From the sequence record OX461087: DNA of 48,435 nt; one strand, given 5' to 3'. The notes under the pieces were generated by a model, which had not been told where the DNA came from, searched no databases, and saw only the letters and a list, made by a program, of their open reading frames with translations. Positions 1,626 through 41,224 of this stretch are shown here, one piece after another (the first letter of the stretch is position 1; each line of letters opens with the position of its first letter). Position numbers and translations under genes: made by a program. The stretch comes from Escherichia phage EcoIv28_Lewi.

Positions 1626-1664
1626 CAATCTACGTCAATAAGTATTGACTAAATGATGTAGATT
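1626..1664. promoter_or_regulatory. divergent promoter region (TTGACG/TAGATT motifs on both strands)
   Basis: Minus-strand TTGACGTAGATTG and plus-strand TTGACT...TGTAGATTGG sit between divergently oriented gene blocks. Confidence 0.4.
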
Positions 1665-1698
1665 GGTCAACAATAATTTTCTAAAAGGAGTAGTAAAT

Positions 1699-1905
1699 AT
1701 GCCAAGACCACGACGCGAGCCGATGGACATTATCACCAGCATTGTGGAGAAGCGGCAGCCGCTGACACTCCGTGATGTTCGCTACTTTGCCCGTTGCTAT
1801 GTGGCACTGGCTGATATGCCTAAAGATGATATGTATGATTTGATTCGGGCCAATTTTAATGTTGATGAAAATAATCGGGTGACGATGAAGGGGGATGAGA
1901 AATGA
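1699..1905 (+). CDS. hypothetical protein (68 aa)
   Basis: Track ORF 1663..1905 trimmed to ATG preceded by AAAGGAG RBS. Confidence 0.5.
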   Translation: MPRPRREPMDIITSIVEKRQPLTLRDVRYFARCYVALADMPKDDMYDLIRANFNVDENNRVTMKGDEK

Positions 1906-2414
1906 GGCATAGGAGAGATGAGCCGAGCAGGGAGTTTATATTGAGTTACCTTGACTACAATCCACTAACTGGGGAATTTAAATGGCTAAAGACAAGGAAT
2001 AGGATTGCAGAAAAAGGGAGTGTGGCTGGCTACTTAAAGCCAGATGGATATGTGCAAATAATTCTTTGCGGTAGGGCTTTTCTTGCTCACAGATTGGCAT
2101 GGATATGCATTCATGGTGCACCAGCAAGTGAAATGATTGACCACATCAATGGCATTCGCAATGACAACAGGGCATGCAATTTAAGGGAGGCCAGCAAATT
2201 TGAGAATAGCCATAACAAAGCAATGAACAAAAACAACACTAGCGGTATCAAGGGGGTTAACTGGAGTTCATCACACAACAAGTGGCATGCAAGAGTTGGA
2301 GTAAATGGCAAAAGATTCACAGTTGGTTACTTTTCCGACATAAGAGAAGCGGAAGCAAAAATAAAAGAATTCAGGAGAATGCATCACAATGAGTTCACAA
2401 ATCACGGGCGATAA
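1902..2414 (+). CDS. HNH homing endonuclease with C-terminal AP2 domain
   Basis: Motif DHINGIRNDNRACNLRE (HNH) followed by an AP2-like segment (GIKGVNW...WHARV...GYF...EAE); ATGA overlap with upstream gene. Confidence 0.8.
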   Translation: MRHRRDEPSREFILSYLDYNPLTGEFKWLKTRNRIAEKGSVAGYLKPDGYVQIILCGRAFLAHRLAWICIHGAPASEMIDHINGIRNDNRACNLREASKFENSHNKAMNKNNTSGIKGVNWSSSHNKWHARVGVNGKRFTVGYFSDIREAEAKIKEFRRMHHNEFTNHGR

Positions 2415-2691
2415 GAGCCATACTGACACAATAGAGCGGCTCATCACTGATCGCGGTAGCCGCTATGGCAAATTCAAAGATGGCGCTGAAATTATGCAGG
2501 AACTGAAAGATGTGATGCGCGAAGTGGATGGCTGGCACAACCTGACGCCAAGCCAGCGCGAGGCGCTCGACATGATTCAGCACAAGATTGGGCGCATCCT
2601 GAATGGCGACCCGACCTATGATGACAGTTGGAAAGATATTGCTGGCTATGCAACGCTAATTGTTAATGAACTGAATGGAGAGATTAAATAA
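2389..2691 (+). CDS. hypothetical protein (100 aa)
   Basis: Track ORF; overlaps end of HNH gene; ends with TAATG overlap into the next gene. Confidence 0.55.
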   Translation: MSSQITGDKSHTDTIERLITDRGSRYGKFKDGAEIMQELKDVMREVDGWHNLTPSQREALDMIQHKIGRILNGDPTYDDSWKDIAGYATLIVNELNGEIK

Positions 2692-2912
2692 TGTCAATTC
2701 TCAATAATGGGTGTGATGAAGACAAAGTTTGGCTCCACGTTGAAAGAGTCGATGATAAAATTCGCGTTGTTGATCAGGATGGTAGGATCGTTGGTGGTTG
2801 CGTCCGCTTGATTCTTGATGTAGACGCCGAAGAGATTACCAAGTTAACAATCACTGTTGAGTGTGCATCACGCGACGTGGATGGAAAAATCAAATTAAAC
2901 GTAAGAGGCTAA
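2691..2912 (+). CDS. hypothetical protein (73 aa)
   Basis: Track ORF, translationally coupled to neighbours. Confidence 0.5.
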   Translation: MSILNNGCDEDKVWLHVERVDDKIRVVDQDGRIVGGCVRLILDVDAEEITKLTITVECASRDVDGKIKLNVRG

Positions 2913-2913
2913 T

Positions 2914-3219
2914 ATGTTCACAGACATCACCATCGCGCAACGAAACGCGAACTATACCAACATTGCTGACACTTCAGCACAACTGGTATCACTAAACAGC
3001 GACGGCAGCGCAGTGCTGAAAATCGGCACCGAAACGGCGCAATTCATCGTGCAGAATCTGTCACAGGCGAACGCAAAGCAGGTGCTGATTAGCACGGGTA
3101 GCGTGCTGTTTCTGGCAGGTAATTACAATGCACCGAATCTTGAGTGTTCACTGGTGCGCATCGTTGAAGCTACGGTTGAGGAATCTGTTGATGAGCCAAC
3201 AACATTGCCAGCAGAGTGA
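2914..3219 (+). CDS. hypothetical protein (101 aa)
   Basis: Track ORF in the same operon. Confidence 0.5.
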   Translation: MFTDITIAQRNANYTNIADTSAQLVSLNSDGSAVLKIGTETAQFIVQNLSQANAKQVLISTGSVLFLAGNYNAPNLECSLVRIVEATVEESVDEPTTLPAE

Positions 3220-3351
3220 GTCATCAAAACCATCTGCATGGTGTGAGCAAATGGAGCGCAATGCGAAAGATGGTGATGAGGCGTATGCTTATTTTCAGCT
3301 GAAGCAGATGTGGAAGCAGCGAGAAAGTTCTGAGCAGGCCAGTTAAACATA

Positions 3352-3376
3352 AAGCCCCATTGCGGGGCTTTTTTCA
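3352..3376 (+). terminator. rho-independent terminator
   Basis: Hairpin AGCCCC-ATTG-CGGGGCT followed by TTTTTT at the convergence of the plus and minus blocks. Confidence 0.6.
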
Positions 3377-4861: not shown

Positions 4862-4905
4862 TCTGCCTCCTGTTCAAATAATGATTAATTCTATCACAAC
4901 AGGTA

Positions 4906-4940
4906 TTGACGTAGATTGAGCGGTGGTGCATAGTATCTAC
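4906..4940. promoter_or_regulatory. divergent promoter/operator region
   Basis: TTGACGTAGATTGAG then TAGTAT; contains inverted repeat GTAGAT-N18-ATCTAC; lies between the lysis cassette (minus) and a plus-strand block. Confidence 0.4.
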
Positions 4941-4966
4941 ATCAAGTTATGAGTGAGGAAGAAAAC

Positions 4967-5110
4967 ATGGTAATGGTCAAATTCAAAGAAAACGGACGCT
5001 GCGGAGTGTTCAACCTTGAGCAAATCAAAATCCGTCCGTGCGGAAAGGTGGTTGCGCCATTTGGTCTGGTGCAGATGCGTGAATGCGAGATTGTGGAGTA
5101 TATCAAATGA
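4967..5110 (+). CDS. small hypothetical protein (47 aa)
   Basis: ATG with GAGTGAGG RBS; stop overlaps next ATG (ATGA); below track size cutoff. Confidence 0.35.
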   Translation: MVMVKFKENGRCGVFNLEQIKIRPCGKVVAPFGLVQMRECEIVEYIK

Positions 5111-5403
5111 CTGACAATAATAATCAGTATTCAGAGCGAGATATAGTGGAACTTGATGAATCTGGTGGCTTTTATTCCCAGCATGTTAGCGCCATGACTT
5201 CTGAATCACTGCATTCTAAATCATCTATTGCTGCTGAGTTAGCATATCGCGACATGCTTATTAACGAGTTAGTTATTGCCATACAACAAGTAATTGAATG
5301 CTACGATTCTGTGGATGGTAAAGTCTGGACAACATCAAGCAAGCGTCGCGCTCTGGATAATGCACGTGCGGCGGTTAATAAGGCGTTAGGGGAAACAAAA
5401 TGA
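5107..5403 (+). CDS. hypothetical protein (98 aa)
   Basis: Track ORF 5083..5403 trimmed to ATG coupled to the upstream small ORF. Confidence 0.5.
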   Translation: MTDNNNQYSERDIVELDESGGFYSQHVSAMTSESLHSKSSIAAELAYRDMLINELVIAIQQVIECYDSVDGKVWTTSSKRRALDNARAAVNKALGETK

Positions 5404-6002
5404 AACTTATCGACCTGTTAGTTCAAGAATTGCCTAAGCGTGGTGGTTGGCCTGATGGTGCGGAATACTGTCATCTAACACAATATGATCGCCACTGCTT
5501 AACTATTGTTTTTTCCCACAGACAAGTTGGCACAGGAAATAATTCAATAACATCAAAGGAAGAAATGGTTTTTTCTGGTATTGGTTTCCTTGGCGATACA
5601 TTGTATGGGTGCATAGTTACAGCTAAAGAATACGAATCAGCGTTATCGGCTTTGCAAAGGCCAGCATGGAACGGCGAAGGCCTACCGCCAGTTGGGTGTG
5701 AGTGTGAGTGCCATGTTGATGAGGGTGTAATTCATTGCATTGTTGTTGGTTATGATTTTGATGGAAAGGCCGTTGTAATGCGCAACGTTCCTGCCCGCAA
5801 ATACTTCTCCATTCAGGCTAACTCAGGGCGCATAAAGCCACTACGCACTGAAGCGGAAAGGAAGCGAGATGCTGCGGCTGAGGCTATTGATTGGTATATG
5901 CCTGAATTTATCCCTGACACACCAAATGATTATTATCACGCAAAGAAAATTTACGACGCCATCGCAGCAGGCAAGATTCCCGGCGTGAAACTGGAGGGTT
6001 AA
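5400..6002 (+). CDS. hypothetical protein (200 aa)
   Basis: Track ORF, ATGA overlap with upstream gene. Confidence 0.55.
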   Translation: MKLIDLLVQELPKRGGWPDGAEYCHLTQYDRHCLTIVFSHRQVGTGNNSITSKEEMVFSGIGFLGDTLYGCIVTAKEYESALSALQRPAWNGEGLPPVGCECECHVDEGVIHCIVVGYDFDGKAVVMRNVPARKYFSIQANSGRIKPLRTEAERKRDAAAEAIDWYMPEFIPDTPNDYYHAKKIYDAIAAGKIPGVKLEG

Positions 6003-6004
6003 TT

Positions 6005-6238
6005 ATGTTTCCTGAGAAAATAAATATTGCTATAACACACTGGAAAACCTCTGACGGCAATGTGTTTACTGACCAGTCTGCAGCAAAGATTCATCAAGCT
6101 GTTATTGATGGTGATGCGCGAATTTGCCCTAAATGTAATGGCACTGGAATGGTTGATCCATATGGTGATGGAAGGACTGAGTTTCCATGCCAAGAATGCA
6201 CAGGAGGATACCAATTTAAAAGTGAGACGTGGCGGTGA
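6005..6238 (+). CDS. small zinc-binding protein (two CxxC pairs)
   Basis: CPKCNG...CQEC motif. Confidence 0.5.
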   Translation: MFPEKINIAITHWKTSDGNVFTDQSAAKIHQAVIDGDARICPKCNGTGMVDPYGDGRTEFPCQECTGGYQFKSETWR

Positions 6239-8679: not shown

Positions 8680-8709
8680 ACCAATAAAAATCCCTCACGA
8701 TGGAGGGAT
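8680..8709 (-). terminator. rho-independent terminator-like hairpin just upstream of portal
   Basis: On minus strand ATCCCTCC-loop-GAGGGAT followed by TTTTATT. Confidence 0.45.
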
Positions 8710-8729
8710 TATAGCATGGGGATAGTGCC

Positions 8730-10584: not shown

Positions 10585-10780
10585 AATTAATCCACCATGC
10601 GGCAATTGCTGAGAAAATCCACAGGGCAATAAAAAGACGGAAAACCTGCCAATTTAGAATGTCATCAACACTTGGCGCTTCCCATCTAATCAACCAGATA
10701 AGTGGGAAAGCAAGCGCAAGCGCAATGGTGTACTTAATACCAATAAACAGAAAATCCCTTGCAAAACCTCTCATAATCAC
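10571..10780 (-). CDS. small membrane protein (69 aa)
   Basis: Track ORF, two hydrophobic segments. Confidence 0.4.
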   Translation of the reverse strand: MIMRGFARDFLFIGIKYTIALALAFPLIWLIRWEAPSVDDILNWQVFRLFIALWIFSAIAAWWINYVQE

Positions 10781-10983
10781 CCTCTCAAAAAATCATTCTT
10801 GCAGCAGATACCCTTGTAACCGCGCTTCTCTTGCAGGTTAACGAAAACATCATCAATTACGCGCAGCAGGAAATCCTCGTCGATATCATACCGACGGCAA
10901 ATCACATCATCAGGCACACCAGCCCGCGCCAGTGAATAAACCTGCTCTTTCTCCTCCTGTGTGAATCCTGCATAGCTGCGCAT
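10777..10983 (-). CDS. hypothetical protein (~68 aa)
   Basis: Track ORF 10777..11043 trimmed to ATG with GGAGAT RBS. Confidence 0.45.
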   Translation of the reverse strand: MRSYAGFTQEEKEQVYSLARAGVPDDVICRRYDIDEDFLLRVIDDVFVNLQEKRGYKGICCKNDFLRG

Positions 10984-11014
10984 AGTGATATCTCCGGTAA
11001 GCCTGATGTAGATT

Positions 11015-11110
11015 ATACTATGCGCTCGGTGTAGATTGGTCAAGTGTGGTGATGCAGGTTTATCAACATTAATAATAAATATTGACGTAGAAATGGTGGT
11101 GATGTAGATT
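11015..11110. promoter_or_regulatory. divergent promoters
   Basis: Minus: TTGACC-N17-TAGTAT (11043..11015); plus: TTGACG-N17-TAGATT (11082..11110); extra TGTAGATT copies nearby. Confidence 0.45.
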
Positions 11111-11145: not shown

Positions 11146-11321
11146 ATGTTTGAAGCATACAAATCAAAAATAACTGGCAGCACATACCTGTTTGCGCCAG
11201 CAAATGGTCTGGTTTTTGTTTGTCGTGGCAAAGACAACACCGATGAAACGAGAATGACAAAAGACGACATAGATATGTATGTCAGAAATGGAGTTATGGA
11301 AGAAGCGGAGTGTCCAGCATG
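11146..11321 (+). CDS. small hypothetical protein (58 aa)
   Basis: ATG after GAGGTGATGAG RBS; coupled by ATGA overlap to next gene. Confidence 0.4.
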
Positions 11322-11501
11322 AGCCATACAAGACCAAGAGTTAACAAAAAAGTAAGAGAAGAGGCAATAGAGCACTTTAAAAGCCACCATGGAAATCACT
11401 CACACGAGGTGATTGTTGGTATAGATGTAGAGAAGATGAAAGAAACCGCAAAACACTACAAAGGAAGGGTTAATCTTGCGGATTATGGAATAGCGGAATA
11501 A
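11319..11501 (+). CDS. small hypothetical protein (60 aa)
   Basis: Track ORF 11310..11501, ATG at 11319. Confidence 0.45.
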   Translation: MSHTRPRVNKKVREEAIEHFKSHHGNHSHEVIVGIDVEKMKETAKHYKGRVNLADYGIAE

Positions 11502-13463: not shown

Positions 13464-13562
13464 ATATAGATTCCTCATCAGGGCATCATTGAAGTGAATG
13501 CGGCAGGCGGTGATGAGTCGCTTTTCGGGTGCCCCCTAGCCGCATTGATTATTATAAATCAG

Positions 13563-16371: not shown

Positions 16372-16400
16372 AATCTACATCAGTTGCGATTCTACGTCAA
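16372..16400 (-). promoter_or_regulatory. sigma70-like promoter TTGACG-N17-TAGATT
   Basis: Minus-strand -35 TTGACG (16400..16395) and -10 TAGATT (16377..16372), 17-nt spacer, ~30 nt upstream of first ORF. Confidence 0.5.
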
Positions 16401-16419: not shown

Positions 16420-16740
16420 TGCTCGTGGGGTAAATTTTTGCCCGTGGGGCAGGTCGTGGGGCAGGTTGGTTGCCCCACGTTTTTCATCGTAAATCATTGA
16501 TTTGAATGTTTTTATTTTTCGTGGGTAAAAAGGGGCAGATTTCATACCCATCCCCTTATAAATATATTCAAATAATCCATTTGTTAATATTATGTTAATT
16601 ACTATCTATAATATGAATAATAATATTACCCATTAACCCAAATAATAATAATTTTATTATATTACATATACTTAGATGAAGTTTTCGTGGGGCAGGTTGG
16701 TTGCCCCACGTTAACCCAATTTACCCCTTTTGCAGATTTT
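16420..16740. repeat. iteron-like repeats, paired 25-bp palindromes and AT-rich spacer (putative replication origin)
   Basis: CGTGGGG(C/T)A repeated at least 5 times; identical CGTGGGGCAGGTTGGTTGCCCCACG at 16455..16479 and 16686..16710; ~180 bp of very AT-rich DNA between. Confidence 0.4.
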
Positions 16741-16747
16741 AGTTGTG

Positions 16748-16776
16748 TTGCAATGCTGGGGAGTAGGTGGTAGTAT
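16748..16776 (+). promoter_or_regulatory. sigma70-like promoter TTGCAA-N17-TAGTAT
   Basis: Read directly from sequence upstream of the plus-strand replication block. Confidence 0.45.
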
Positions 16777-16806
16777 TTTGGGGAAATACTTGATTGAGGA
16801 GCGGAA

Positions 16807-20227: not shown

Positions 20228-20239
20228 AAAATCTTCCTG

Positions 20240-20287
20240 TTGACGATGGTGTAGATTCATTGTAATTTACTCGCATGAAACAATCAA
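20240..20287. promoter_or_regulatory. divergent promoters (primase, minus; HNH/helicase block, plus)
   Basis: Plus: TTGACG...TGTAGATT...TAATTT; minus: TTGATT-N17-TACAAT. Confidence 0.45.
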
Positions 20288-20299
20288 TCGTTACTCGCA

Positions 20300-20947: not shown

Positions 20948-20951
20948 TGAA

Positions 20952-23298: not shown

Positions 23299-23335
23299 TG
23301 TAGATTCATTTACGTGATGATGAGTGAGGTTAACA

Positions 23336-24274: not shown

Positions 24275-24285
24275 TTAGTGAGGTG

Positions 24286-24951: not shown

Positions 24952-24954
24952 TAA

Positions 24955-25461
24955 ATGGCTCGAGGCGTAAATAAAGTAATTATTGTCGGCACTCTCGGAA
25001 ATGACCCTGAAGTAAAATATTCAGCATCAGGCTCTGCAATTGCCAACCTTTCTGTTGCAACATCTGAGCAGTGGAAAGATAAGCAGACAGGAGAAAAGAA
25101 AGAGCAGACTGAATGGCATCGTGTAGTCATCTTCGGGAAACTTGCTGAAGTTGCAGGAGAATACCTTCGTAAAGGTTCGCAGGTTTATATCGAAGGCCAG
25201 CTGCGCACTCGTAAATGGTCTGACAGCAACGGCGTGGATAAATACACCACTGAGATTGTCATTCCACAGATGGGCGGCGTTATGCAAATGCTTGGTGGTA
25301 AGCGTGATGATTCTTGTCAGCAACAACCACGACAGCAATCAGGCCAACAACCTCAAAGCGGATGGGGAACAAATAAGCAACAGCAGCAGCAATCAAAACA
25401 ACAAAGCCCACAAGGAGGCAATGAGCCCCCTATGGACTTCGACGATTCAATACCCTTCTGA
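24955..25461 (+). CDS. ssb: single-stranded DNA-binding protein
   Basis: Near-identical to the E. coli SSB OB-fold ([35 protein letters not shown]) with acidic C-terminal DDSIPF tail. Confidence 0.9.
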
Positions 25462-25479
25462 TACCATCAACCACTTCTA

Positions 25480-25512
25480 AAAACTAACCCCGCAGAAGCG
25501 GGGTTAGTTTTA
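25480..25512. terminator. bidirectional rho-independent terminator
   Basis: Hairpin CTAACCCCGC-AGAA-GCGGGGTTAG plus T-run between convergent blocks. Confidence 0.6.
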
Positions 25513-26289
25513 CGAGTAAGCACTCTCGAACTTACAAAACCAGGTTGCTCCTCCATCAGTTGTTGATAGCCTAAAAACTTGCGTTCCAGATGATGTCAAA
25601 GATGGAGTATTGCTTGCTAACTTAACATTTGCACCAAATGTTATTGTTTTAGATACTAATGAGTAAATAGATAAAATAACCTCAACATAACCAATTAGTA
25701 TGTTTGTTAATAGCGCAGGGGTTATTGTTACATTTCCTGTAACTGTAGCTGAGATGTAAGACGCGTCTGAAAAGTTAGGTGCATAACTTGCTGTTGGCGT
25801 TTCAAACTTTGAAGCTCTTACTAATACAGGAACACCAACATTTTTCCTGAAAATTGTACTATTGCAAATAGTATCATACTCTATGCCGACAAAGTTCTTA
25901 GCTGCAAGTATATTGGTAAATGACTGATCTATAGAGTAAATATGATTTATCAATCTTGCTACCCATGCTGGTGAGTCTGAGTTTTCACACTCAATGAATG
26001 AACAGTTGATACTACCAACAGCGAATGGCATTAATGATGCCGTATATGAAGATAGCCCTGCGTCATTGAATGCATTCATATTCACAAAAGTCTGGCATTG
26101 AGAGAACGTATTACCTGTGGCTCCACCATCAATAAAAAAGCCAATCCCACCGTTGATATAACCATCTACAGCATCTAAATTTGCTTTCGTATAATCCCAT
26201 TTTGACGGTGAATCAGCAAAGCACTGATTGAAGGAATTGTTTATTGAGTTCTGTACAACAAAGTTGAGAAAAAGTTCATATAATAACAA
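25510..26289 (-). CDS. putative tail fibre / receptor-binding accessory protein
   Basis: 259 aa, Gly/Ser/Thr/Asn-rich; last gene of tail block; no in-frame ATG near the 5' end, so start is unclear. Confidence 0.4.
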   Translation of the reverse strand: MLLYELFLNFVVQNSINNSFNQCFADSPSKWDYTKANLDAVDGYINGGIGFFIDGGATGNTFSQCQTFVNMNAFNDAGLSSYTASLMPFAVGSINCSFIECENSDSPAWVARLINHIYSIDQSFTNILAAKNFVGIEYDTICNSTIFRKNVGVPVLVRASKFETPTASYAPNFSDASYISATVTGNVTITPALLTNILIGYVEVILSIYSLVSKTITFGANVKLASNTPSLTSSGTQVFRLSTTDGGATWFCKFESAYS

Positions 26290-26311
26290 GGCCCATTATC
26301 GGGCCTTATGT

Positions 26312-28162
26312 TTATAGCTGGCAAGTAAAGCTCAAGTCTATTGTTGCATTACCTGTTATCAGATCTGTTATCTGAACATCAACAGGTGAGCCTGACCTAT
26401 AGATTCTGCGGAAGAAAATTTTACCTCCCGTAATGTAACCATTTACCTCCAATAAATTAGTGTCAGTCCTTATTGCACTACTTAATATTGTAAGTATAGA
26501 ACCCATGCAATCACCCTTGAATGAGCTTAGGTAATGGGGAAGAGATATTGAAAACGCACCGGATCCAACGTTGCTTGTTATGTTGCATTCAATAGTTAAC
26601 CTTCCTGATACGCTGCGCTGAGTCAATTCATGTCTGTATATTTGTGAAGTATATGTGCAAGGTGCGTTTATGGTTGGGTTGAATCCAGTGGACTGAGGGA
26701 AAACGTAGAAGCTTTGTAAGTTACCACCAGATACATTATTATTGATTGGCGTTGCTGACCCTGTGAAAACATAAACACCATTATTCTCAATACCTGATGA
26801 GTCAGAAGTTATAGGTTCCTTTATGCTGTTTTCAGTTCCGCTTATTAAAAATGCTTTACCATATTCAGGCCCATCATTTGAGTGGAAAAGAATTCTTGGG
26901 CCTATCAGGTTATTATTGTAGCCAGATATAATATAACCGACACCACCATTTTCTAAACTTGCAGGCTGAGTTTCGTCAAGCTTATGTGGAGTATCAGAAT
27001 AGAAATTAATTATGTTGTTTAAACTTCCGCTAAGCTTTAATCCAATTAACATTACACGAGTGCTTCTATCTCCATCCAACCCCCATACATGCGTGTTGAC
27101 TATGTCGTTCGCTCCGCCTGTAATTTCCATTCCTACAGGATAACCAACTACAGTTGTGTTAGAGTACATACTATCAGAAGTTCGGTGTAGTATACCGCTG
27201 ATAGCAGAAGTCCCTAGTTGATCCTCTGGGGCTACGACTGATAAATTATTGAATTTCCATTCATATCCTTTCTCTATGTTAACACCACCGTTTAACATAT
27301 TGAAAATTCTTGCATTATTTATTACAGTTCCAACTCCATCAGTACCATAAATTCCAACAGCAGATATTGATGATTCAGGCTCAATATAAAGATTGTCAAT
27401 AAGAACTCTATTTCCTGTTTGTATAGCTGTTATACCATCATTATAAGGAGATCTCCATTTATCATCCTTAACTTCTATAACAACAGTATCAGTAAAGTCC
27501 TTTGGCACGATAGAACCGATATTATGCATTCTTGCCCCACTGTTTAAAACAAGACGTGATGTTATGCATGTTTTACCAATAAACAATACGGTTCTTTCAT
27601 TTGTTGCTGACCAATCTAAAGCTTGCTGATTAGGAATGGTATCATCATCAATACCATTACATTTAGCGCCAAATGATCGATTTGTAATGCAATCAGTCAA
27701 TACATCTTCAACAATTCTGGTTGAAAAACCTGTTGGCCCAAATCCTATCAATCCTGCCCCTGTAGGCTCAGCAAGATTTGCTCTTAATGATGCATCCCCG
27801 ACACTAACCCACGCACCAATACCAACCCCACCAGTTGTTGCTGGAGTTGAACCGGCAGATACGGTTTTAGGTAATTCACCATCCCAGCGGTAGTATTCTC
27901 CTGTTGCTTCGTAACGTAGCACCTGATTTGGTAGCGTCAATGTCGCGCCATCTTCAAAGCTATCCATTGTGATATATCCATAAGCACGAATGGCCTCTTC
28001 CGCAGTGTACTGGAATCCCGCAATTGTCCAGCGGCGAACTCCGAATCGGTCGGTGTAGTAATGTGCGTCAGATGTCACCACCTCGTCGATCTTACCGGCA
28101 TTAAATTTCAGGTCGCGCGGATCTTCTGACGGAATTGGTTTATTAGTTGGTGTGGTAGCCAT
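26312..28162 (-). CDS. tail fibre / tailspike protein
   Basis: 616 aa, repetitive Gly/Asn/Ser/Thr-rich beta-type body after a conserved-looking N-terminal anchor. Confidence 0.6.
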   Translation of the reverse strand: MATTPTNKPIPSEDPRDLKFNAGKIDEVVTSDAHYYTDRFGVRRWTIAGFQYTAEEAIRAYGYITMDSFEDGATLTLPNQVLRYEATGEYYRWDGELPKTVSAGSTPATTGGVGIGAWVSVGDASLRANLAEPTGAGLIGFGPTGFSTRIVEDVLTDCITNRSFGAKCNGIDDDTIPNQQALDWSATNERTVLFIGKTCITSRLVLNSGARMHNIGSIVPKDFTDTVVIEVKDDKWRSPYNDGITAIQTGNRVLIDNLYIEPESSISAVGIYGTDGVGTVINNARIFNMLNGGVNIEKGYEWKFNNLSVVAPEDQLGTSAISGILHRTSDSMYSNTTVVGYPVGMEITGGANDIVNTHVWGLDGDRSTRVMLIGLKLSGSLNNIINFYSDTPHKLDETQPASLENGGVGYIISGYNNNLIGPRILFHSNDGPEYGKAFLISGTENSIKEPITSDSSGIENNGVYVFTGSATPINNNVSGGNLQSFYVFPQSTGFNPTINAPCTYTSQIYRHELTQRSVSGRLTIECNITSNVGSGAFSISLPHYLSSFKGDCMGSILTILSSAIRTDTNLLEVNGYITGGKIFFRRIYRSGSPVDVQITDLITGNATIDLSFTCQL

Positions 28163-28201
28163 TATAATAAATGCTCCTTTGTGAATTTGATGTATATTGT
28201 A

Positions 28202-31539
<3,338 letters not shown>

Positions 31540-31545
31540 TTACTG

Positions 31546-32925
31546 TCAGACGTTGAATTTTATTGTTGTGATGTATTTGCTGCCCCACGCAGAATCTGCT
31601 TGGGGGATGGTGGCGTAATCTCCAACCGCCTGAACGTTTACCACGGATCCGTCTGAATAGGTAATGTCGATGCTTGTTGCGCCATTCATTGCTACTTTTG
31701 CGGATGCTGATGGTCGTGTAGTTAAATTTTCTTCTGTTTTAATATAAGATGATGAATTGGTAGACTTCTCCATTTGAGCGCCAAAAACTGATATGGAACT
31801 AACGCCGTCACCAGTAAATGAAGTGTTACCATTTTCATCTGTTAACCAAACTGACCCGTTTATAGTTGATACAGAACTTCTGGTGGTTATTCTTGACCAC
31901 ACCCTGTACCATCCATTGCCAATTGACATTATTCCGCATCTTGAATAGTCATTAGCGGATGTTATTTTTCCACTGGAAAGGTCTACATAAACAGGATTGC
32001 TTGCCACCTGACTAGCAAATACTCCGACCTGAACAAGAGCATTATTGTATCCGTTTGCTTTCACAAAAACAGAATATGTATAAGTGGCAGACACATCAGG
32101 ATTCAGGAGTTGCAGAACGTGATGCGAGCCATCTGTAATCGTCGGGATAATATCAGATGATGAAAGCTCTCCTGTGGGGGATATTGCATCCCCGTAATTG
32201 ACTGTAATTCTCGTCTTACTCCATGATTGATCGGTTAAGTTCTCAGACATTTTTAGCAAATTCAAACTTGCAATCTCAGGAGGCTCGCGCCCAACAGCAC
32301 TACCATCAATAAACGTGAGAGGCCATTCATTGATAGCGGACTGCACAAGATTACCATTGCGGTTGATGTAATAAATCTGTGGTCCATCATAAACAATGCG
32401 ACTATCAAGCGTAGATGACAGCATGTTAATCGGCATGTGCAATATCGGCGTCATATAGACTTGCGGTAGTTCACGGTTAACAACTTCATCCAGCCAGCTA
32501 TACCATCTGTAATCCAGCTCGACCAGAACATCGTCGAACTCATCCATCGTGTTATTGAGTTTTTTGGCGATGATGTTTCCAGTCCACGTCACCACGCCAC
32601 CATCAATGCTTGTCTGCACCGGGTAATCGGTGAAATGCAGGGTCTGCTCCTGCAATCCACTGCCGCCGAGGTCAATCATCATGGTGAACCAGTTGTTTGC
32701 TTTGTTGAGGTAACTCGGACTACGCAACCACTGGATAAATGCGCGCTCCTCTGCCAGCGTAAACTTCCATGTCAGGCTCCATGTCGATGCAATGTCAGTT
32801 GTCAGTTTCTGGAAAATCGGCACCCCGACCGCAGGCTGGTCACTGCGGAACGGGGTTTGCTGTGTCATGTTTTTACTGGCGCGTTGTGCGAGTGGAAGCC
32901 AGTCAGGGTATTTGATGATAGCCAT
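31546..32925 (-). CDS. minor / distal tail protein
   Basis: 459 aa directly after tape measure (ATGA overlap). Confidence 0.5.
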   Translation of the reverse strand: MAIIKYPDWLPLAQRASKNMTQQTPFRSDQPAVGVPIFQKLTTDIASTWSLTWKFTLAEERAFIQWLRSPSYLNKANNWFTMMIDLGGSGLQEQTLHFTDYPVQTSIDGGVVTWTGNIIAKKLNNTMDEFDDVLVELDYRWYSWLDEVVNRELPQVYMTPILHMPINMLSSTLDSRIVYDGPQIYYINRNGNLVQSAINEWPLTFIDGSAVGREPPEIASLNLLKMSENLTDQSWSKTRITVNYGDAISPTGELSSSDIIPTITDGSHHVLQLLNPDVSATYTYSVFVKANGYNNALVQVGVFASQVASNPVYVDLSSGKITSANDYSRCGIMSIGNGWYRVWSRITTRSSVSTINGSVWLTDENGNTSFTGDGVSSISVFGAQMEKSTNSSSYIKTEENLTTRPSASAKVAMNGATSIDITYSDGSVVNVQAVGDYATIPQADSAWGSKYITTIKFNV

Positions 32926-35974: not shown

Positions 35975-36003
35975 TGCGTAACCCTGTCTGTGTAATGGTG
36001 TGA

Positions 36004-36042
36004 TTATACCATTTGACAGGTTGCGCAGACTTGGTGTAGATT
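36004..36042. promoter_or_regulatory. divergent promoters
   Basis: Minus: extended -10 TGGTATAAT; plus: TTGACA-N18-TAGATT (36013..36042). Confidence 0.45.
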
Positions 36043-36074
36043 TAAGTCATGTTGATGTAGATTGAGGTTCGAGT

Positions 36075-36350
36075 ATGAAAATGGAGAGTAAAAACTGGAA
36101 TGTCGTAGGTAGCTTCAAAACGGGATGTAGAGTAGAAAATCCGTGGGATGTGGTAACTGAAGATGATGGCACTGGATGGAGATTTGATGGTGATCTGCCG
36201 CATGAAGCTAATGTGAATAGCTTTTTAACTGATGGTTTTGGCGCAGGTGGATGGATTCATTGTTTCGGAGACACTCCTACTAAAACAGCGTCATTCCCAT
36301 ATTTAATTGTGGCTATTTTCTTGCTGCTGCTTATTTTAAAGATTATTTGA
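36075..36350 (+). CDS. tail-anchored membrane protein (moron)
   Basis: 91 aa, soluble N-terminus and C-terminal transmembrane helix, antisense to the tail operon. Confidence 0.5.
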   Translation: MKMESKNWNVVGSFKTGCRVENPWDVVTEDDGTGWRFDGDLPHEANVNSFLTDGFGAGGWIHCFGDTPTKTASFPYLIVAIFLLLLILKII

Positions 36351-36455
36351 GATAACAACCATTAACGAGACAATGCGATGAAACGACGCAACATAACCAA
36401 TGCCATTGATCTTAGCGCACGCCTTGACGTTTTCTTTTGGCGTGCGATTGCTCAT
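36336..36455 (-). pseudogene. duplicated 5' fragment of the tail assembly chaperone gene
   Basis: Minus-strand ORF MSNRTPKENVKACAKINGIGYVAS matches the chaperone N-terminus MKNRTP...AKLNGIDYVAP; shared AATCGCACGCCA and GCTAA.ATCAATGGCATTG. Confidence 0.35.
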
Positions 36456-36504
36456 GTTTTGCATCCTGAATTTGACTGATGTTGATTATATCATCTCAGT
36501 GGTG

Positions 36505-36533
36505 TTGACACCTGCGAGGTGGTGATGTAGATT
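36505..36533 (+). promoter_or_regulatory. sigma70-like promoter TTGACA-N17-TAGATT
   Basis: Consensus -35, 17-nt spacer, -10 TAGATT. Confidence 0.55.
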
Positions 36534-36572
36534 CAATTCATCGAAACGAGTGATGAATAAATGAGGTGAGTT

Positions 36573-36866
36573 ATGAAAATTAAAATGTTGGTTGCATCTG
36601 TGCTGTTAGCTTCCTCTTTCTCTGCTATCGCAACATCAGAGGTGTGCAAGAATATTGGCGATATTGCATTAAACACGGCCGATGCTCGCGATAACGGTAT
36701 CAGCAAGAATCTTGCCGAGGTGGTAGTTAAGGGTTCCACAAAAAACAACGAATCAGCAGAAATAATTGGTATTGCTATCGTAGAAATGGTTTATGCACGC
36801 AAGGATATGACTAAAGAGCAATTGCGTGATGTATCTGTTGCTTTGTGCGAAAAGAATGGCATGTAA
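36573..36866 (+). CDS. secreted/periplasmic small protein
   Basis: N-terminal signal peptide MKIKMLVASVLLASSFSAIA. Confidence 0.5.
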   Translation: MKIKMLVASVLLASSFSAIATSEVCKNIGDIALNTADARDNGISKNLAEVVVKGSTKNNESAEIIGIAIVEMVYARKDMTKEQLRDVSVALCEKNGM

Positions 36867-36898
36867 TATAAACAAGTTATTAACAGTTGAGGTTAGCT

Positions 36899-37093
36899 AT
36901 GGACGTTGTTATTTTGTTGTTTTTCGTTGGTTTGGTGGTATTTGCCTATCTTCTCCCGTCATTTGTGGCATTGCAAAGAAAGCATACAAATACTACCGCA
37001 ATCTGTGTGCTGAATATTCTTGTAGGGTGGAGTTTTATTGGGTGGGTTGCGGCACTTGTTTGGGCATTAGTTAACAGTGGCGACAAGAAATGA
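36899..37093 (+). CDS. superinfection-immunity-like small membrane protein
   Basis: Two transmembrane helices; motif YLLPSFVA..RKH.N...GWSFIGWVAALVWAL. Confidence 0.45.
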   Translation: MDVVILLFFVGLVVFAYLLPSFVALQRKHTNTTAICVLNILVGWSFIGWVAALVWALVNSGDKK

Positions 37094-37233
37094 ACGAGCA
37101 AACAAAAGCTGACCTGATTTTCTACACTGAACTGTATGTTGATGCGGGTTACGATTACGAAGAAGCTGAACGCATGGCGAAAGACTTGCTTCGTGTGATT
37201 GGTGTGATTTTTGATGAGGATAAGGTGATATGA
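37090..37233 (+). CDS. small hypothetical protein (47 aa)
   Basis: ATGA-coupled ORF between the two neighbouring genes. Confidence 0.35.
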   Translation: MNEQTKADLIFYTELYVDAGYDYEEAERMAKDLLRVIGVIFDEDKVI

Positions 37234-37430
37234 GCCGGTGGATTAGGTGTAGTGAGCGGATGCCTGAAGGTGACGAGATGGTTCTTACAGCATTTCGTGG
37301 TGTCGTTAGAACTGCGATATGTAAAGTTGTCGACAACATTGGCAGCAAGATATTTGTTAGTGAATTAGACCGCTGTCACGGAATTCCAGCCACCCATTGG
37401 TCTAAATCACCACAACCACCACAACAATAA
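37230..37430 (+). CDS. DUF551-like protein
   Basis: W.RCSERMPE ... THWSKSPQPP pattern. Confidence 0.5.
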   Translation: MSRWIRCSERMPEGDEMVLTAFRGVVRTAICKVVDNIGSKIFVSELDRCHGIPATHWSKSPQPPQQ

Positions 37431-38177: not shown

Positions 38178-38228
38178 TTCGATCTCCGAATTGTGTTAGC
38201 TGCTAACGTGGTGATTATATCACAGGTG

Positions 38229-38257
38229 TTGACAGTGATTATTTTGTGGTGTAGATT
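38229..38257 (+). promoter_or_regulatory. sigma70-like promoter TTGACA-N17-TAGATT driving the non-coding region and tRNA
   Basis: Consensus hexamers with 17-nt spacer. Confidence 0.55.
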
Positions 38258-38261: not shown

Positions 38262-38686
38262 TTCAGATAGTTTTCGTGAGCGACTTTGCGGACTTTTTAG
38301 AAACTGACCACAAAGATAAATGCAAACGATGATGTTGTTCTGATGGCGGCGTAATAGCCTAAAATTAGCGGGGTATTCCAGTTCCCTGTAACAGAATCTG
38401 GCGCAGTGGCCCGCTGTGATTAATAATGGGCACACAACAGGTAAGAGTACTGAGTCGGTAATCGTGAAGAGTCGGCGTGCCTGGTTAGCCAGTGCTCTTA
38501 CCGTTGTGGTAATGCCATCTTGATTATTTGGATAGGTTTGCATCCATTATTATGCCAGTTTCAGTTAATCGCGAAACGCCACAACACTTAATATCCAGCA
38601 TTATCGCAATCATATGTAGGGGTATGTATGGGTTACGGGGCTGGATATTAAGAAAGCACGCTGGCAATGCTTAAACCAGCACTTAT
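38262..38686 (+). ncRNA. candidate structured non-coding RNA / tRNA leader
   Basis: ~425 nt with no credible ORF; 13-bp perfect inverted repeat (38587..38599 with 38640..38652) and a second long-range stem. Confidence 0.3.
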
Positions 38687-38763
38687 GGACGCGTAGCTTA
38701 ATTGGTTAAAGCAACCGACTCATAATCGGCTGATTGAAGGTTCAAATCCGTCCGTGTCCACCA
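38687..38763 (+). tRNA. tRNA, anticodon CAT (Met, or Ile if lysidine-modified)
   Basis: Hand-folded cloverleaf: acceptor GGACGCG/CGTGTCC, anticodon loop CTCATAA, T-loop TTCAAAT, encoded 3' CCA. Confidence 0.8.
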
Positions 38764-38767: not shown

Positions 38768-38797
38768 AAAAGCCGCTTCACGCGGCTTTATTTATTT
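38768..38797. terminator. bidirectional rho-independent terminator
   Basis: Hairpin AAAGCCGC-TTCA-CGCGGCTTT plus T-run. Confidence 0.6.
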
Positions 38798-39166: not shown

Positions 39167-39561
39167 AGTTTCATCTCCTTCTTAATCACGCTATCTACAA
39201 GGTCTTTTGTGCGTTGCGCTGCTTTGGTCAGGAATTGCGGCTCACCACCCGGACTCCAGTATGTGCCGTTACCATTGCTGCGTGGTTTACCTGCAAGTTT
39301 ACCGCTGGCATTGTGGACGTACAGCGCATATTTCGCAGAGTAGCCAACCTTGCCAGTGATTCGCGTCCCGCTAACTTCCACAGTATCAAACTGGCTGTTA
39401 ATCAGCGTTGATGTGTCAATAGGCGTCAAAGTGGCTGATTCAGTGCGGATGATGTATGTCGCTGACTTGATTGCCCTCACCGCTTTTTCTGCCGTGATAG
39501 TGCCGACTATCTGCTCAGTTTTCCGAATCGCCTCCTGAATGCCTCTTAATTTCGCTGGCAT
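39163..39561 (-). CDS. tail completion protein (HK97 gp10-like, putative)
   Basis: 132 aa; pattern ...YSAKYALYVHN...; positional. Confidence 0.45.
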   Translation of the reverse strand: MPAKLRGIQEAIRKTEQIVGTITAEKAVRAIKSATYIIRTESATLTPIDTSTLINSQFDTVEVSGTRITGKVGYSAKYALYVHNASGKLAGKPRSNGNGTYWSPGGEPQFLTKAAQRTKDLVDSVIKKEMKL

Positions 39562-39908
39562 TATGTCACCAGTGCGAAATCAGGTGGCTCAGCTCGATTG
39601 AACGTATTGCCATAATTAATCACATTCAGAACCTGATTTGCGCCAGCCACCAGCGGGTCAGCTTCTGTCACCGTTCCAATCATGATGTAATCACCCACCT
39701 TAGCGCCAGTGTATTCTGTCCAGAAAGTATTCTTCTGCACAATCTCATTGCCTTTCGCGTCAGTCGATACATCATCGTTAAAGCCATAATCGCACATGAT
39801 GCTCACTGGCGCATCAAAAGTCGGCTTGCCGTACTTGTCAGTTCCGCTTTTGTGCCAGATTGTGCATGGTTGCGTATAGCTCCAGTTAGCCAGCGAAGTC
39901 ATTTGCAC
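39561..39908 (-). CDS. head closure / head-tail joining protein (putative)
   Basis: 115 aa; positional. Confidence 0.45.
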   Translation of the reverse strand: MQMTSLANWSYTQPCTIWHKSGTDKYGKPTFDAPVSIMCDYGFNDDVSTDAKGNEIVQKNTFWTEYTGAKVGDYIMIGTVTEADPLVAGANQVLNVINYGNTFNRAEPPDFALVT

Positions 39909-40291
39909 TTACTCCCACGCACAACCGCAAACCACGGCTTGCCGCTTCCGTCAGGGTCTTCCACCAAATCGCCAGTGCATCCGGCTGTATCCAGTAGTTT
40001 CATCTGATTGTACAGCGCCACCCACGGCTTGCTGCCATAGGCGAATGATTGTGATGCGCCAGACGGTGCGCTCTGACTGGTAACGTAGCGACCAGCAGTA
40101 TTTGCGCTAATCAGGATGGAAGCCCACAGCATGATCGCATTTTGTCGGCATTCATCATTTGGGTAGTTCAGTTCAAGGCATTCACTGATTGACGCCACAA
40201 GACACAGAATGCCAGACGCATCCGTTGTGGTGATGGTCATCCCGCGCGACGCCATCTGACTGACCAGTTCTTCAGGTGTTGGTGCTGTCAT
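39899..40291 (-). CDS. head-tail connector (adaptor) protein (putative)
   Basis: Track ORF 39899..40327 trimmed to ATG; positional. Confidence 0.45.
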   Translation of the reverse strand: MTAPTPEELVSQMASRGMTITTTDASGILCLVASISECLELNYPNDECRQNAIMLWASILISANTAGRYVTSQSAPSGASQSFAYGSKPWVALYNQMKLLDTAGCTGDLVEDPDGSGKPWFAVVRGSKCK

Positions 40292-40556
40292 TTCTCTTTG
40301 ACTCCCGTACTTTCCACCACATCTCAAACAGGTTCTTTATTACCAGTGACAGCGCGCCAAGTATTGATGCTACTGCCGCCCACTCTGTCAGGCTGTGTGG
40401 AATCATAGCCTCAAAATAAGATTGCGTGACAGGTGTTTGTTCTGCAACTTTTAAGCCGATACCAGTTCCAATAGAGGCATACCCGGCCTTATCAATCACC
40501 TGCCCCGTCGTCCCGCTTATAACTTGCTCTGCGACCTGTCTTAGTGTTTCGTTCAT
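40272..40556 (-). CDS. hypothetical protein with C-terminal transmembrane helix
   Basis: Track ORF. Confidence 0.4.
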   Translation of the reverse strand: MNETLRQVAEQVISGTTGQVIDKAGYASIGTGIGLKVAEQTPVTQSYFEAMIPHSLTEWAAVASILGALSLVIKNLFEMWWKVRESKRNDSTNT

Positions 40557-40588
40557 TGCGAGTCTCGCTGATGATATGTTTCCAGCAC

Positions 40589-41029
40589 TTATAGATTTGA
40601 ATCAGCGAAAAAACGATGGCAACCACGCCAAGAATAATGTCCAATTTCGCCGCCCCATTTAAAAGTGATGGAAAGGATGAACAGATGGATGCCGATAATA
40701 ATAAATGCGTACTGCGCATGAAGCGGCGTTTCTACAGGCGTGATAAATTCCCATACGAATGACTCTATCGCTACCAGCCATTCATAAAGGCTCATCGTCA
40801 GCACGCAGAGCGCCATCTTTGTACTTTTGCGCAGCGCAATAGCCGAAAACAACCAGACCATAGACTGCGCAAGGTAATACAGATATTCGGCGGGAAATGA
40901 ATCAACAAGCACCCATCCAAGATACACAGACATCACCATTGCCGGAATGAACACCAGAAACGCGACCATGCCCGTACAGGCAAAACCCAGCACATACATG
41001 ATCATGATGGCAATATCTGCGCCGAACAT
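40589..41029 (-). CDS. multi-pass membrane protein
   Basis: 146 aa with ~4 hydrophobic helices; preceded by a 39-aa basic Ser/Thr/Gly-rich ORF (~41026..41147) with AGGAGA RBS. Confidence 0.45.
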   Translation of the reverse strand: MFGADIAIMIMYVLGFACTGMVAFLVFIPAMVMSVYLGWVLVDSFPAEYLYYLAQSMVWLFSAIALRKSTKMALCVLTMSLYEWLVAIESFVWEFITPVETPLHAQYAFIIIGIHLFILSITFKWGGEIGHYSWRGCHRFFADSNL

Positions 41030-41195
41030 TATTTTTTACCGCGCGATGGTGAACGAGTGGAACCGTTTGGCTTCACTGCGCCAGTTTTGCCGCCAGTTTT
41101 GGTGTTGCCAGTAGCGCGTGAACGAGACGGCGAATTGGTGGACCCCATGTTTAAATCTCCTGTTGTTTGATTAGCATGATTTTAGCATATTCCTG

Positions 41196-41224
41196 TTGAC
41201 GTAGATTGATGGCGTGTTTATAGT
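41196..41224 (+). promoter_or_regulatory. sigma70-like promoter TTGACG-N17-TATAGT for the accessory island
   Basis: Consensus hexamers; TAGATT motif inside the spacer. Confidence 0.5.

Follow-up and report, generated by a model that had tools for sequence, protein, structure and literature searches.

A conserved 11-bp element at predicted early promoters of non-structural genes in Escherichia phage EcoIv28_Lewi and related siphoviruses

The early and middle promoters of bacteriophage T4 follow class consensus sequences used with the host RNA polymerase, the middle class with a MotA box and AsiA, and Thermus phage P23-45 has −35/−10 promoters as well as extended −10 middle and late promoters, which are switched by the polymerase-binding proteins gp39 and gp76. 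On the IncP plasmid RK2, the ParB-family protein KorB is a global repressor with 12 operators, 13-bp palindromes located at or near promoters. In T4-type phages, PeSL (promoter-early stem-loop) repeats are found at the borders of shuffled genes. Here we describe an 11-bp element, TGRYGTAGAWW (the 11-mer), that recurs in the genome of Escherichia phage EcoIv28_Lewi (OX461087; its 48,435 nucleotides are referred to as the window) and in related phages. We propose, with a probability of roughly 0.65, that the 11-mer is a class-specific core of σ70-type early promoters heading the non-structural units throughout this clade. The class is of a known sort, a phage-specific promoter consensus, that was not previously described, and it is unusual in that the same 11-mer is found at either core position.

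An earlier note on this sequence had listed ten sites for the pattern TTGAC(G/A)-N17-TAGATT. All ten are present, five as strict matches (TTGACR-N15-19-TAGATT at 11082+, 16372−, 36013+, 36505+ and 38229+, versus 0.07 expected from shuffles) and the other five as variants. The note had also suggested motif discovery on intergenic sequence, and when k-mers were ranked by intergenic enrichment without reference to its pattern, GTAGATT came first among the 7-mers, with 17 copies in the genome versus 4.5 expected and 14 of the 17 in non-coding sequence (binomial p ∼1e-12). Alignment of these copies showed that the conserved unit reaches four bases upstream of GTAGAT. The resulting 11-mer is present in 17 copies versus 0.40 expected, every one of them intergenic, and none of 100 shuffles reached even 3 copies; TAGATT is found in 13 of the 17, and the variants TAGAAA, TAGAAT and TAGATA occur in second copies. 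We conclude that the pattern is real, strongly non-random and conserved, and that the conserved unit is better described by the 11-mer than by TTGACR-N17-TAGATT, which is one arrangement among several. Recurrence by chance or base composition is already refuted by these counts and by the syntenic positions of the copies across genera, and we give it negligible weight; the only related point is that a generic σ70 consensus scan returned promoter-like matches no more often than shuffles did. Because that scan was not enriched, the signal is specific to the 11-mer, and the generic σ70 and terminator scans served only to confirm spacing at named sites.

The window is an enterobacterial siphovirus genome of ∼48 kb. 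Its nearest annotated relatives, Shigella phage DS8 and Escherichia phage C1 (Deseoctovirus), match positions 1-24000 at ∼90% identity across only 52-58% of the sequence, and for positions 20000-32000 the best relatives reach 68-73% coverage at 85-90% identity. Salmonella phage Vi II-E1 (Macdonaldcampvirus) and the Skatevirus phages are also related, as are, more distantly and with gene order kept, Klebsiella phage KpV2811, Vibrio phage pYD38-A (Roufvirus) and Citrobacter phage K1M, whose portal proteins are 60-69% identical to that of the window. Phages of this clade have been reported as lytic in published papers, and there is no integrase or repressor among the annotations of the relatives' records. 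Gene functions were assigned by synteny with annotated relatives, and 8.8% of the genome is non-coding by our gene map. Literature searches on the motif, on promoters of these genera and for the Vi II-E1 genome paper returned nothing on promoters, and we found nothing on the transcription programme of the clade in the literature searched.

The distribution of the 11-mer among intergenic regions follows gene orientation, with copies in 8 of 9 divergent regions, 0 of 8 convergent regions and 2 of 23 tandem regions (Fisher p = 5e-6); in both tandem cases the copies are co-oriented with the genes. In six genomes taken together, 78 copies were counted; 74 lie in intergenic sequence, and of these 70 face the next gene. 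The statement in the earlier note that each site is oriented toward downstream genes holds in the window, where the apparent exception, 38229, faces a tRNA gene. The motif heads the Lar-like and MarR-like operon, runs of small genes, the helicase unit, the exonuclease VIII/Erf/SSB genes, the superinfection-immunity region, the ParB and RusA operon and the tRNA unit. These are non-structural units only, so the claim that the motif heads most transcription units was too broad, the structural and lysis operons being preceded by a motif-free extended −10 element. Placement, partner hexamers, distances to start codons, the tRNA with its terminator and syntenic conservation agree with one another, and the sites are very probably promoters, as had been suggested. 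From these features we infer that the sites would be active in transcription, and we take the probable early or late timing from the functions of the genes.

In one of its two positions, the 11-mer would supply the −10 element of a promoter read by the host RNA polymerase: TAGATT, with T−12, A−11 and T−7 kept, would be the −10 hexamer, TGRYG would occupy −17 to −13, and a TTGACA-like −35 would mostly lie 17-18 bp upstream. At the sites of this type (11100, 16372, 23296, 36032, 36523 and 38247), a hexamer matching TTGACA at 4-6 of 6 positions is found 17-18 bp upstream, and the start codon is 32-46 nt away. TAGATT is also the −10 hexamer of the lambda PRM promoter. In the other position, the 11-mer would be fused to the −35 element; preceded by TT it reads TTGACGTAGATT, the TTGACG of which would be the −35 hexamer. 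At these sites TTGACG is followed, at a spacing of exactly 17 bp, by a separate −10 (TATAGT, CATAGT, GATGAT or a second TAGATT), and the distance to the start codon is 50-65 nt. The difference of ∼20 nt between the two types is what a shift of the 11-mer from the −10 to the −35 position predicts at a constant leader length. TGACGTAGATT, the form of the 11-mer within TTGACGTAGATT, also occurs at the −10 position behind TTGACA in KpV2811 (18208), pYD38-A (44043) and Vi II-E1 (19793); therefore C and T can replace one another in the element, and the TGAC within the 11-mer need not belong to a −35. A TTGACA-like −35 at 16-18 bp is present at 11082, 16372, 23278, 36013, 36505, 38229, 4906, 41196 and 20240. 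At 20240, TTGACG and TAGATT are just 6 nt apart and the probable −10 at a 17-nt spacing is TAATTT (20263-20268); on both strands of this region, our hexamer assignments are readings of the sequence. The 41196 site, the predicted ParB-operon promoter, is TTGACG-N17-TATAGT in the terms of the original pattern.

Several sites are more complex. The copies at 1627(−) and 1654(+) form an oppositely oriented pair facing two divergent operons, neither with a good partner hexamer at 17 bp, and the 1654 copy abuts a TTGACC (reverse complement, 1666-1671) that provides the −35 for a predicted minus-strand promoter, TTGACC-N18-AATACT. Exactly between these divergent 11-mers, at 1634-1649, is a 16-bp palindrome, GTCAATAAGTATTGAC; judging by the printed contexts, it is apparently poorly conserved in the distant relatives. 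The two copies at 11004-11037 bracket the −10 of a minus-strand TTGACC-N17-TAGTAT (11043-11015), the promoter of a gene for a 68-aa protein; the equivalent copies in KpV2811 and pYD38-A form a TTGACGTAGATT-N10-GTAGATT promoter for a plus-strand gene.

Three further observations concern sequences outside these sites. The sole divergent region without an 11-mer (16546-16806) falls within 16455-16806, which contains a near-consensus TTAATA-N17-TATAAT before the replicative helicase gene, a strong hairpin (CGTGGGGCAGGTTGGTTGCCCCACG, an annotated repeat in Vi II-E1) and AT-rich sequence, and which may function as an origin or in control. Within a tail gene, on the coding strand (30981-30996, −), TTGACGCTGTAGATTG nearly repeats the motif; it has 2 extra bases and does not fit the 11-mer pattern, and it could be due to chance or be an internal promoter. 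A match to the Rfam int-alpA small RNA (sRNA) model was found at 13483-13546 (−), in a gap upstream of the terminase small-subunit region (42.6 bits versus a gathering score of 35.8).

GTAGATT was also the top intergenic 7-mer in DS8, KpV2811, K1M and pYD38-A by the same k-mer test. The 7-mer is enriched in Vi II-E1 too, where 5 of 6 copies are intergenic, but it ranks there under terminator-stem k-mers, and GTAGAAT is commoner. We built a sequence logo from 60 non-redundant intergenic GTAGAT sites of five genomes; the sites were selected on GTAGAT, and the unselected neighbouring positions were nevertheless conserved as T (57 of 60), G (56), A (44) and Y (59) upstream and T (51) downstream. 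Individual sites are also found in place in the relatives: the 1627(−) copy is syntenic in C1, DS8, KpV2811, K1M and pYD38-A, the 4906 promoter is conserved in DS8, C1 and K1M, the 16372(−) promoter in DS8, C1, Vi II-E1 and K1M, and the 20240 site in Vi II-E1 and pYD38-A. In a five-genus alignment of the exonuclease VIII promoter, no invariant block is longer than TTGATGTAGATT. In the ParB-operon promoter, TGTTGACGTAGATT, TATAG and TGACGTAGAAACAACAATAAATGTTAGAGGTGA are invariant in a five-genome alignment, as is the ATTTTAnCAT of the neighbouring minus-strand element at 41179, while the 11-nt spacer differs across the five genomes and varies even between close relatives. Because the sites are syntenic and invariant, they are under purifying selection and are not recent copies of each other. 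TGACGTAGAAACAACAATAAATGTTAGAGGTGA is the 5′ leader of the ParB operon (41227-41260, +); its invariance in five genomes of different genera exceeds that of most coding sequence and suggests that the leader may have an additional regulatory role.

Beyond the clade, we searched IMG/VR for the composite promoter. All contigs with two matches were 44-49-kb members of the clade, and other single matches were at chance level, except in an unrelated group of ∼73-kb phages. Across diverged copies, this group retains one TTGACA-N12-TGRTGTAGATT promoter ∼32 nt upstream of a ribosome-binding site and ATG. Between the two contigs (L080:378-406, ∼73 kb, and L086:2059-2087, ∼9.5 kb), TGATG is changed to TGGTG and the spacer differs.

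In the window, the minus-strand structural and lysis operons are each directly preceded by a near-consensus extended −10 element (TGnTAnAAT) without the motif, and TGn is present at −15/−14 in TGATAGAAT, TGCTATAAT, TGATACAAT, TGGTATAAT, TGATATAAT (twice) and TGCTAAAAT. TGATAAAAT is found at the place equivalent to 4888 in KpV2811 and pYD38-A, the 36003 element is conserved in KpV2811, K1M and pYD38-A, and GTGATTATATCAC at 38214 is identical in 37 of 37 relatives, including those in which the sequence beyond it has been replaced. The extended −10 of the major tail gene has no −35 by inspection. Of the 12 copies of TGNTANAAT in the genome, 8 are intergenic and 10 are on the late-gene strand. We suggest that the structural and lysis operons would be served by this second promoter class, characterized by an extended −10 and lacking both a −35 and the 11-mer. 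At five strand-switch regions the two classes stand back-to-back: 1-11 bp separate the late −10 from the early −35, and the predicted starts are 53-62 bp apart. At this spacing polymerase footprints should overlap, so that one bound promoter would hinder the other, and the paired promoters would probably compete. One such layout is repeated: a module at 35975-36455, comprising an extended −10, a double-motif promoter, a 91-aa gene and a 39-aa open reading frame, duplicates the back-to-back arrangement of the adjoining 36456-36572, and among the relatives fetched it is found in K1M only. The features of the window are listed in Table 1.

Table 1. Predicted promoters, candidate regulators and elements of the 38229 unit in the window.
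Feature	Position	Strand	Context
TTGACGTAGATT (11-mer TGACGTAGATT)	1627-1638	−	Faces Lar-like/MarR-like operon (1598 leftward); 35 nt to start codon
TGATGTAGATT	1654-1664	+	41 nt upstream of gene 1699-1905; no −35 at 16-18 bp
TTGACG-N17-CATAGT, 11-mer fused to −35 (4907-4917)	4906-4934	+	Heads genes 4967-6238
TGATGTAGATA, "inverted copy", −10-type	4934-4944	−	Faces lysis cassette; 79 nt to start codon
Two copies: TGATGTAGATT (11004-11014) and CGGTGTAGATT (11027-11037)	11004-11037	+	Conserved in DS8, C1, Vi II-E1, K1M
Double motif TTGACGTAGAAA-N6-TGATGTAGATT (−35 TTGACG, 17-nt spacer, −10 TAGATT)	11082-11110	+	Heads genes 11146-11501
Double motif TTGACGTAGAAT-N6-TGATGTAGATT	16372-16400	−	Heads small-gene run, 16341 to ∼14124
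TTGACG-N17-TAATTT, 11-mer TGGTGTAGATT (20247-20257) in spacer	20240-20268	+	Heads helicase unit
TTGATT-N17-TACAAT, predicted primase promoter	20287-20259	−	Places 11-mer at about −6 to +2
TTGCCT-N17-TAGATT with TTGATGTAGATT	23278-23306	+	Predicted internal promoter before exonuclease VIII/Erf/SSB genes
TTGACA-N18-TAGATT (11-mer 36032-36042) and second copy TGATGTAGATT (36053-36063)	36013-36063	+	Heads gene 36075-36350
TTGACA-N17-TAGATT with TGATGTAGATT	36505-36533	+	Heads genes 36573-37430, superinfection-immunity region by synteny with DS8
TTGACA-N17-TAGATT with TGGTGTAGATT	38229-38257	+	Heads non-coding unit antisense to flanking tail genes
Predicted ParB-operon promoter: TTGACGTAGATT, 11-nt spacer, TATAGT, 2 nt, second copy TGACGTAGAAA at ∼+1	41196-41237	+	
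Extended −10 TGATAGAAT	4888-4896	−	Predicted late promoter, lysis cassette (4861 leftward); 9 bp from 4906 −35
Extended −10 TGCTATAAT	8708-8716	−	Ahead of portal gene
Extended −10 TGATACAAT	28196-28204	−	Ahead of tail fibre gene
Extended −10 TGGTATAAT	36003-36011	−	Predicted late promoter, tail operon (35974 leftward); 1 bp from 36013 −35
Extended −10 TGATATAAT	36485-36493	−	Back-to-back with 36505 promoter
Extended −10 TGATATAAT	38214-38222	−	Predicted promoter, major tail protein gene (38177 leftward)
Extended −10 TGCTAAAAT	41179-41187	−	Predicted late promoter, head-tail connector operon (41148 leftward)
ParB/Spo0J/Noc/KorB-family protein, candidate reader	41600-42409	+	Pfam HTH_ParB 3e-11, KorB 9e-5; PDB 1vz0 7e-13
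MarR-like winged-helix protein, candidate regulator	426-914	−	Operon predicted to be driven from 1627(−); phrog_1687 3e-57
68-aa three-helix protein, weak candidate regulator	10777-10983	−	Promoter bracketed by reverse-oriented 11-mers
tmRNA-like tag template, unannotated (tag frame 38322-38357)	38264-38360	+	Just downstream of 38229 promoter
Long hairpin (CACAACAGGTAAGAG ... CTCTTACCGTTGTG)	38428-38516	+	Between tag template and tRNA
tRNA-Met (CAT), encoded CCA	38687-38763	+	Antisense to flanking tail and connector genes
Intrinsic terminator	38769-38789	+	After tRNA-Met

Several observations weigh against the proposal that the 11-mer is simply part of a −35/−10 core opposed by a second, late class. 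A recognizable partner hexamer is missing at 1654+, 1627−, 4934−, 36053+ and 41227+. The pooled logo has almost no information at the −35 position, with only a weak enrichment of T, and its flanks stay below 0.35 bit at every position, the −35 window included; a simple −35/−10 reading therefore misses some copies. The conservation of TGRYG is not explained by σ70 alone: its TG stands at −17/−16, and also at −14/−13 when Y is T, rather than at the −15/−14 of a canonical extended −10. TGNTANAAT shows no genome-wide enrichment (12 copies versus 9.7 expected), so that the late class is defined by placement and conservation only. Finally, the gene map is a rough in-house call that was checked solely against the relatives' annotations. 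The TG register also led us to reject the idea that the motif promoters are themselves canonical extended −10 promoters.

One way to accommodate such copies is that the 11-mer works as a promoter element in its own right, needing no −35 and recognized by a phage σ-like factor or by the host polymerase in a modified form, each copy having its own start and TTGACGTAGATT with TATAGT representing tandem promoters. The lack of fixed −35 information in the logo is consistent with this idea, as is the location of 1654+, 36053+, 41227+ and 1627−, which have no −35 and yet lie 18-41 nt from a start codon, and the 5 nt upstream of TAGATT are conserved like an extended −10. However, those 5 nt are out of register with the known extended −10, and conservation extends to the partner hexamers located at exactly 17 bp, arguing for ordinary use of −35 and −10. 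In addition, neither the proteins scanned nor the relatives' annotations include a σ-like or polymerase-binding protein, save for a "sigma-70 region 4" label that the K1M record gives to the homologue of the 68-aa protein, and neither Pfam nor a fold search supports this label. We consider an autonomous element unlikely.

A second question is whether the 11-mer is read by anything other than σ70. From the extra and inverted copies, the earlier note had suggested that the motif may also be an operator, citing an inverted pair at ∼4912. Both arms exist (GTAGAT at 4911-4916 and ATCTAC at 4936-4941), with a gap of 19 nt rather than 18. The 4934-4944 copy reads TTGATGTAGATACT on the minus strand and is conserved in DS8, C1 and K1M. 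Across the window, paired copies are direct (spacings of 17, 21, 23 and 30 bp) or inverted (27 and 29-30 bp), the 11-mer is asymmetric, and we found neither dyad symmetry nor a fixed half-site spacing. The pairs at ∼4912 and 1627/1658 differ in both spacing and polarity, and each arm reads as a −10-type element facing a gene. We therefore rejected a palindromic operator; most of the additional copies, inverted ones included, can be accounted for as −10 elements belonging to promoters in tandem or divergent arrangement.

Nevertheless, not all of the conservation belongs to σ70. Judged by position, σ70 would explain T−12, A−11 and T−7 of TAGATT and the TTGAC of the −35-type sites, and would leave over TGRYG at −17 to −13, the central G-A-T of the hexamer and the TAGATT that fills the first six spacer positions of TTGACGTAGATT. 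Since the 11-mer is invariant at positions that σ70 does not read, we think it likely that it would also serve as a handle through which a phage-encoded factor might control the early class coordinately. In a stronger form of this idea, the 11-mer would be primarily the binding site of a phage regulator that covers the −10, the −35 and spacer, or +1, shuts the early class and could free or activate the late promoters; this extends the promoter proposal without excluding it, and we regard it as possible but tentative. It would account for the invariance of the whole 11-mer whichever core element it overlaps, including −17 to −13, −10 to −8 and those six spacer positions, and for the absence of the motif from the late class. 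At every site the copies overlap the −10, the −35 and spacer, or +1, and some stand in operator-like places: ∼+1 at 41227 in the ParB-operon promoter, −6 to +2 of the putative primase promoter (20251 being at about its +1), and two copies bracketing the −10 of the 68-aa gene. On the other hand, nearly all copies have promoter polarity and promoter-like distances to genes, and the promoter reading alone explains this placement. The promoter of the ∼73-kb phage group also hints that the host polymerase may favour the sequence, although this is one case, selected by the search pattern itself, and thus weak.

Three DNA-binding candidates that might read the 11-mer are present in every motif-bearing genome examined, which is consistent with a regulator. 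The best conserved is a full-length ParB-like protein, encoded here by a lytic phage; its identity in the distant relatives is 79-86%, far above that of the portal protein, and we found no repeated parS-like palindrome in the genome that could be its other target, the intergenic palindromes being terminators. In the alignment to 1vz0, its arginine-rich GERRxRA box is altered to GQHRYLGA. The MarR-like protein, whose Pfam MarR_2 match is below cutoff, has diverged to 37-49% identity in the distant relatives while the motif stayed fixed, which argues against it as the reader. It is limited to exactly the same clade as the motif, so its phylogenetic profile is uninformative. The 68-aa protein is 53-66% identical in distant relatives and belongs to a shallow family; its AlphaFold model is a three-helix bundle (predicted local distance difference test, pLDDT, 81), for which the best PDB match, a helix-turn-helix of the NarL/GerE type, is not significant (E = 0.31) and counts against a regulatory role. 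With no Pfam match and this fold result, we rejected the σ region 4 mimic implied by the K1M label. A further difficulty is that ParB, KorB and MarR proteins normally read palindromes as dimers, whereas the 11-mer has no dyad and its pairs vary in spacing and orientation. The three proteins are thus putative readers. In the most specific version of the idea, a global regulator particular to the clade would have the 11-mer as its operator, and the foremost candidate is the ParB/KorB-like protein, with two copies in its own promoter; by silencing the early set the regulator would relieve occlusion of the back-to-back late promoters, a KorB-like early-to-late switch in a virulent phage without its own polymerase. 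We consider this version doubtful.

The 38229 promoter differs from the others in what follows it. An exact mosaic junction recurs at 38257/38258: in 30 of the related loci examined, the promoter is identical through to the final T of GTAGATT. This raises the idea that gene modules are shuffled by way of the repeats, acting as recombination junctions or mobile promoter cassettes, and that the motif has been retained for this purpose. In favour of this idea, homology to 14 relatives ends exactly at 38257, at least 4 unrelated modules follow the same promoter, and the 35975-36455 module duplicates a back-to-back pair (in K1M only). Comparison of the window with 36 related loci gave 833 end-points of homology (ends of high-scoring segment pairs). 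Just 16 of these lie within 12 bp of an 11-mer, 14 of them at 38257, and the other 16 copies have 0-1 each; intergenic breakpoints near the motif number 3 of 52 versus 11.6% expected. An 11-bp sequence is also too short for homologous exchange. A general role of the promoter repeats as mosaic junctions is rejected by this genome-wide test and is very improbable; the junction is a property of the cargo slot at 38257.

In the window, this slot begins with an apparent tag template resembling that of transfer-messenger RNA (tmRNA). It contains AGAUAAAU (AUAAAU before the tag) followed by GCA AAC GAU GAU GUU GUU CUG AUG GCG GCG UAA UAG, encoding ANDDVVLMAA and two stops. The SsrA tag is ANDENYALAA, which ANDDVVLMAA resembles. 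Rfam tmRNA models gave sub-threshold matches almost wholly to the tag region, ARAGORN calls the template only at 70% thresholds, and no tRNA-like domain was found at normal thresholds. The template is conserved in 21 distinct relatives and is not annotated in the relatives' RefSeq records examined; a second allele, ANEEMYLAVA and a stop, is found in KpV2811, pYD38-A and one close relative. DS8 and KpV2811 have the tag element without the tRNA, and pYD38-A has tRNA-Arg and tRNA-Met at the place of the tRNA-Met of the window. In the intervening hairpin, the stem is conserved in relatives and the loop is swapped for unrelated inserts of very different length (fold z-score only −2.3). Vi II-E1-type phages have a roi-like antirepressor gene at the slot, behind a different TTGATGTAGATAAT element. 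The tag template may be more novel than the promoter motif itself.

Phages of this clade (Deseoctovirus, Macdonaldcampvirus, Skatevirus and Roufvirus-like) are widely isolated for biocontrol of Salmonella, E. coli, Shigella and Klebsiella. For them, our analysis yields a testable transcription map, in which about a dozen predicted early-class promoters are marked by one 11-bp element and the late class is a separate one of extended −10 promoters, and the five back-to-back early/late pairs could form a simple competition switch. The map gives exact sites for 5′-end mapping, promoter engineering and cargo insertion; the slot after 38257 is one whose contents are exchanged in nature from relative to relative. 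A phage protein reading the 11-mer, if there is one, would amount to a compact regulator acting globally on the lytic cycle. Should the host polymerase be the sole reader, the conserved TGRYG extension would deserve characterization as a determinant close to the −10.

How the window compares with the known systems depends on the feature considered. As with PeSL, a repeated early promoter forms the exact border of alternative cargo modules at 38257, whereas here the repeats have no associated stem-loop and no general breakpoint enrichment. As in the KorB regulon, a ParB/KorB-family gene lies beside a promoter in which a motif shared by about a dozen promoters is present twice. In contrast to KorB operators, the 11-mer is asymmetric and its reader is putative, the similarity of the ParB-like protein to KorB (E = 0.0015; structure 8qa8) being weak compared with that to Spo0J (7e-13). 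The resemblance to T4 lies in a phage-wide consensus that marks a temporal class, with an extra element beside or within the core, and the −35-type 11-mer covers about −34 to −24, overlapping the region of the MotA box centre. Unlike the MotA box, it coexists with a −35, TTGACG, that matches at 5 of 6 positions, and it also occurs at −10; neither MotA nor AsiA is named in the relatives' annotations, and no dedicated homology search was made for them. With P23-45 the window shares a predicted class split, non-structural genes having −35 promoters and structural and lysis genes extended −10 promoters that lack a −35, of a kind that an anti-σ-region-4 factor could exploit. It differs in that no gp39- or AsiA-like factor was identified, that timing would be read from gene function and that the back-to-back pairing is specific to the clade. 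Finally, as in σ70 promoters of E. coli and its phages, many sites have a TTGACA or TTGACG −35, a spacer of 17-18 bp and a −10 with T−12, A−11 and T−7, the sites lie upstream of the genes that they face, and divergent pairs share a control region. Unlike in those promoters, the −10 is fixed as TAGATT with no drift around TATAAT, TGRYG is conserved out of register, and the 11-mer also recurs fused to the −35.

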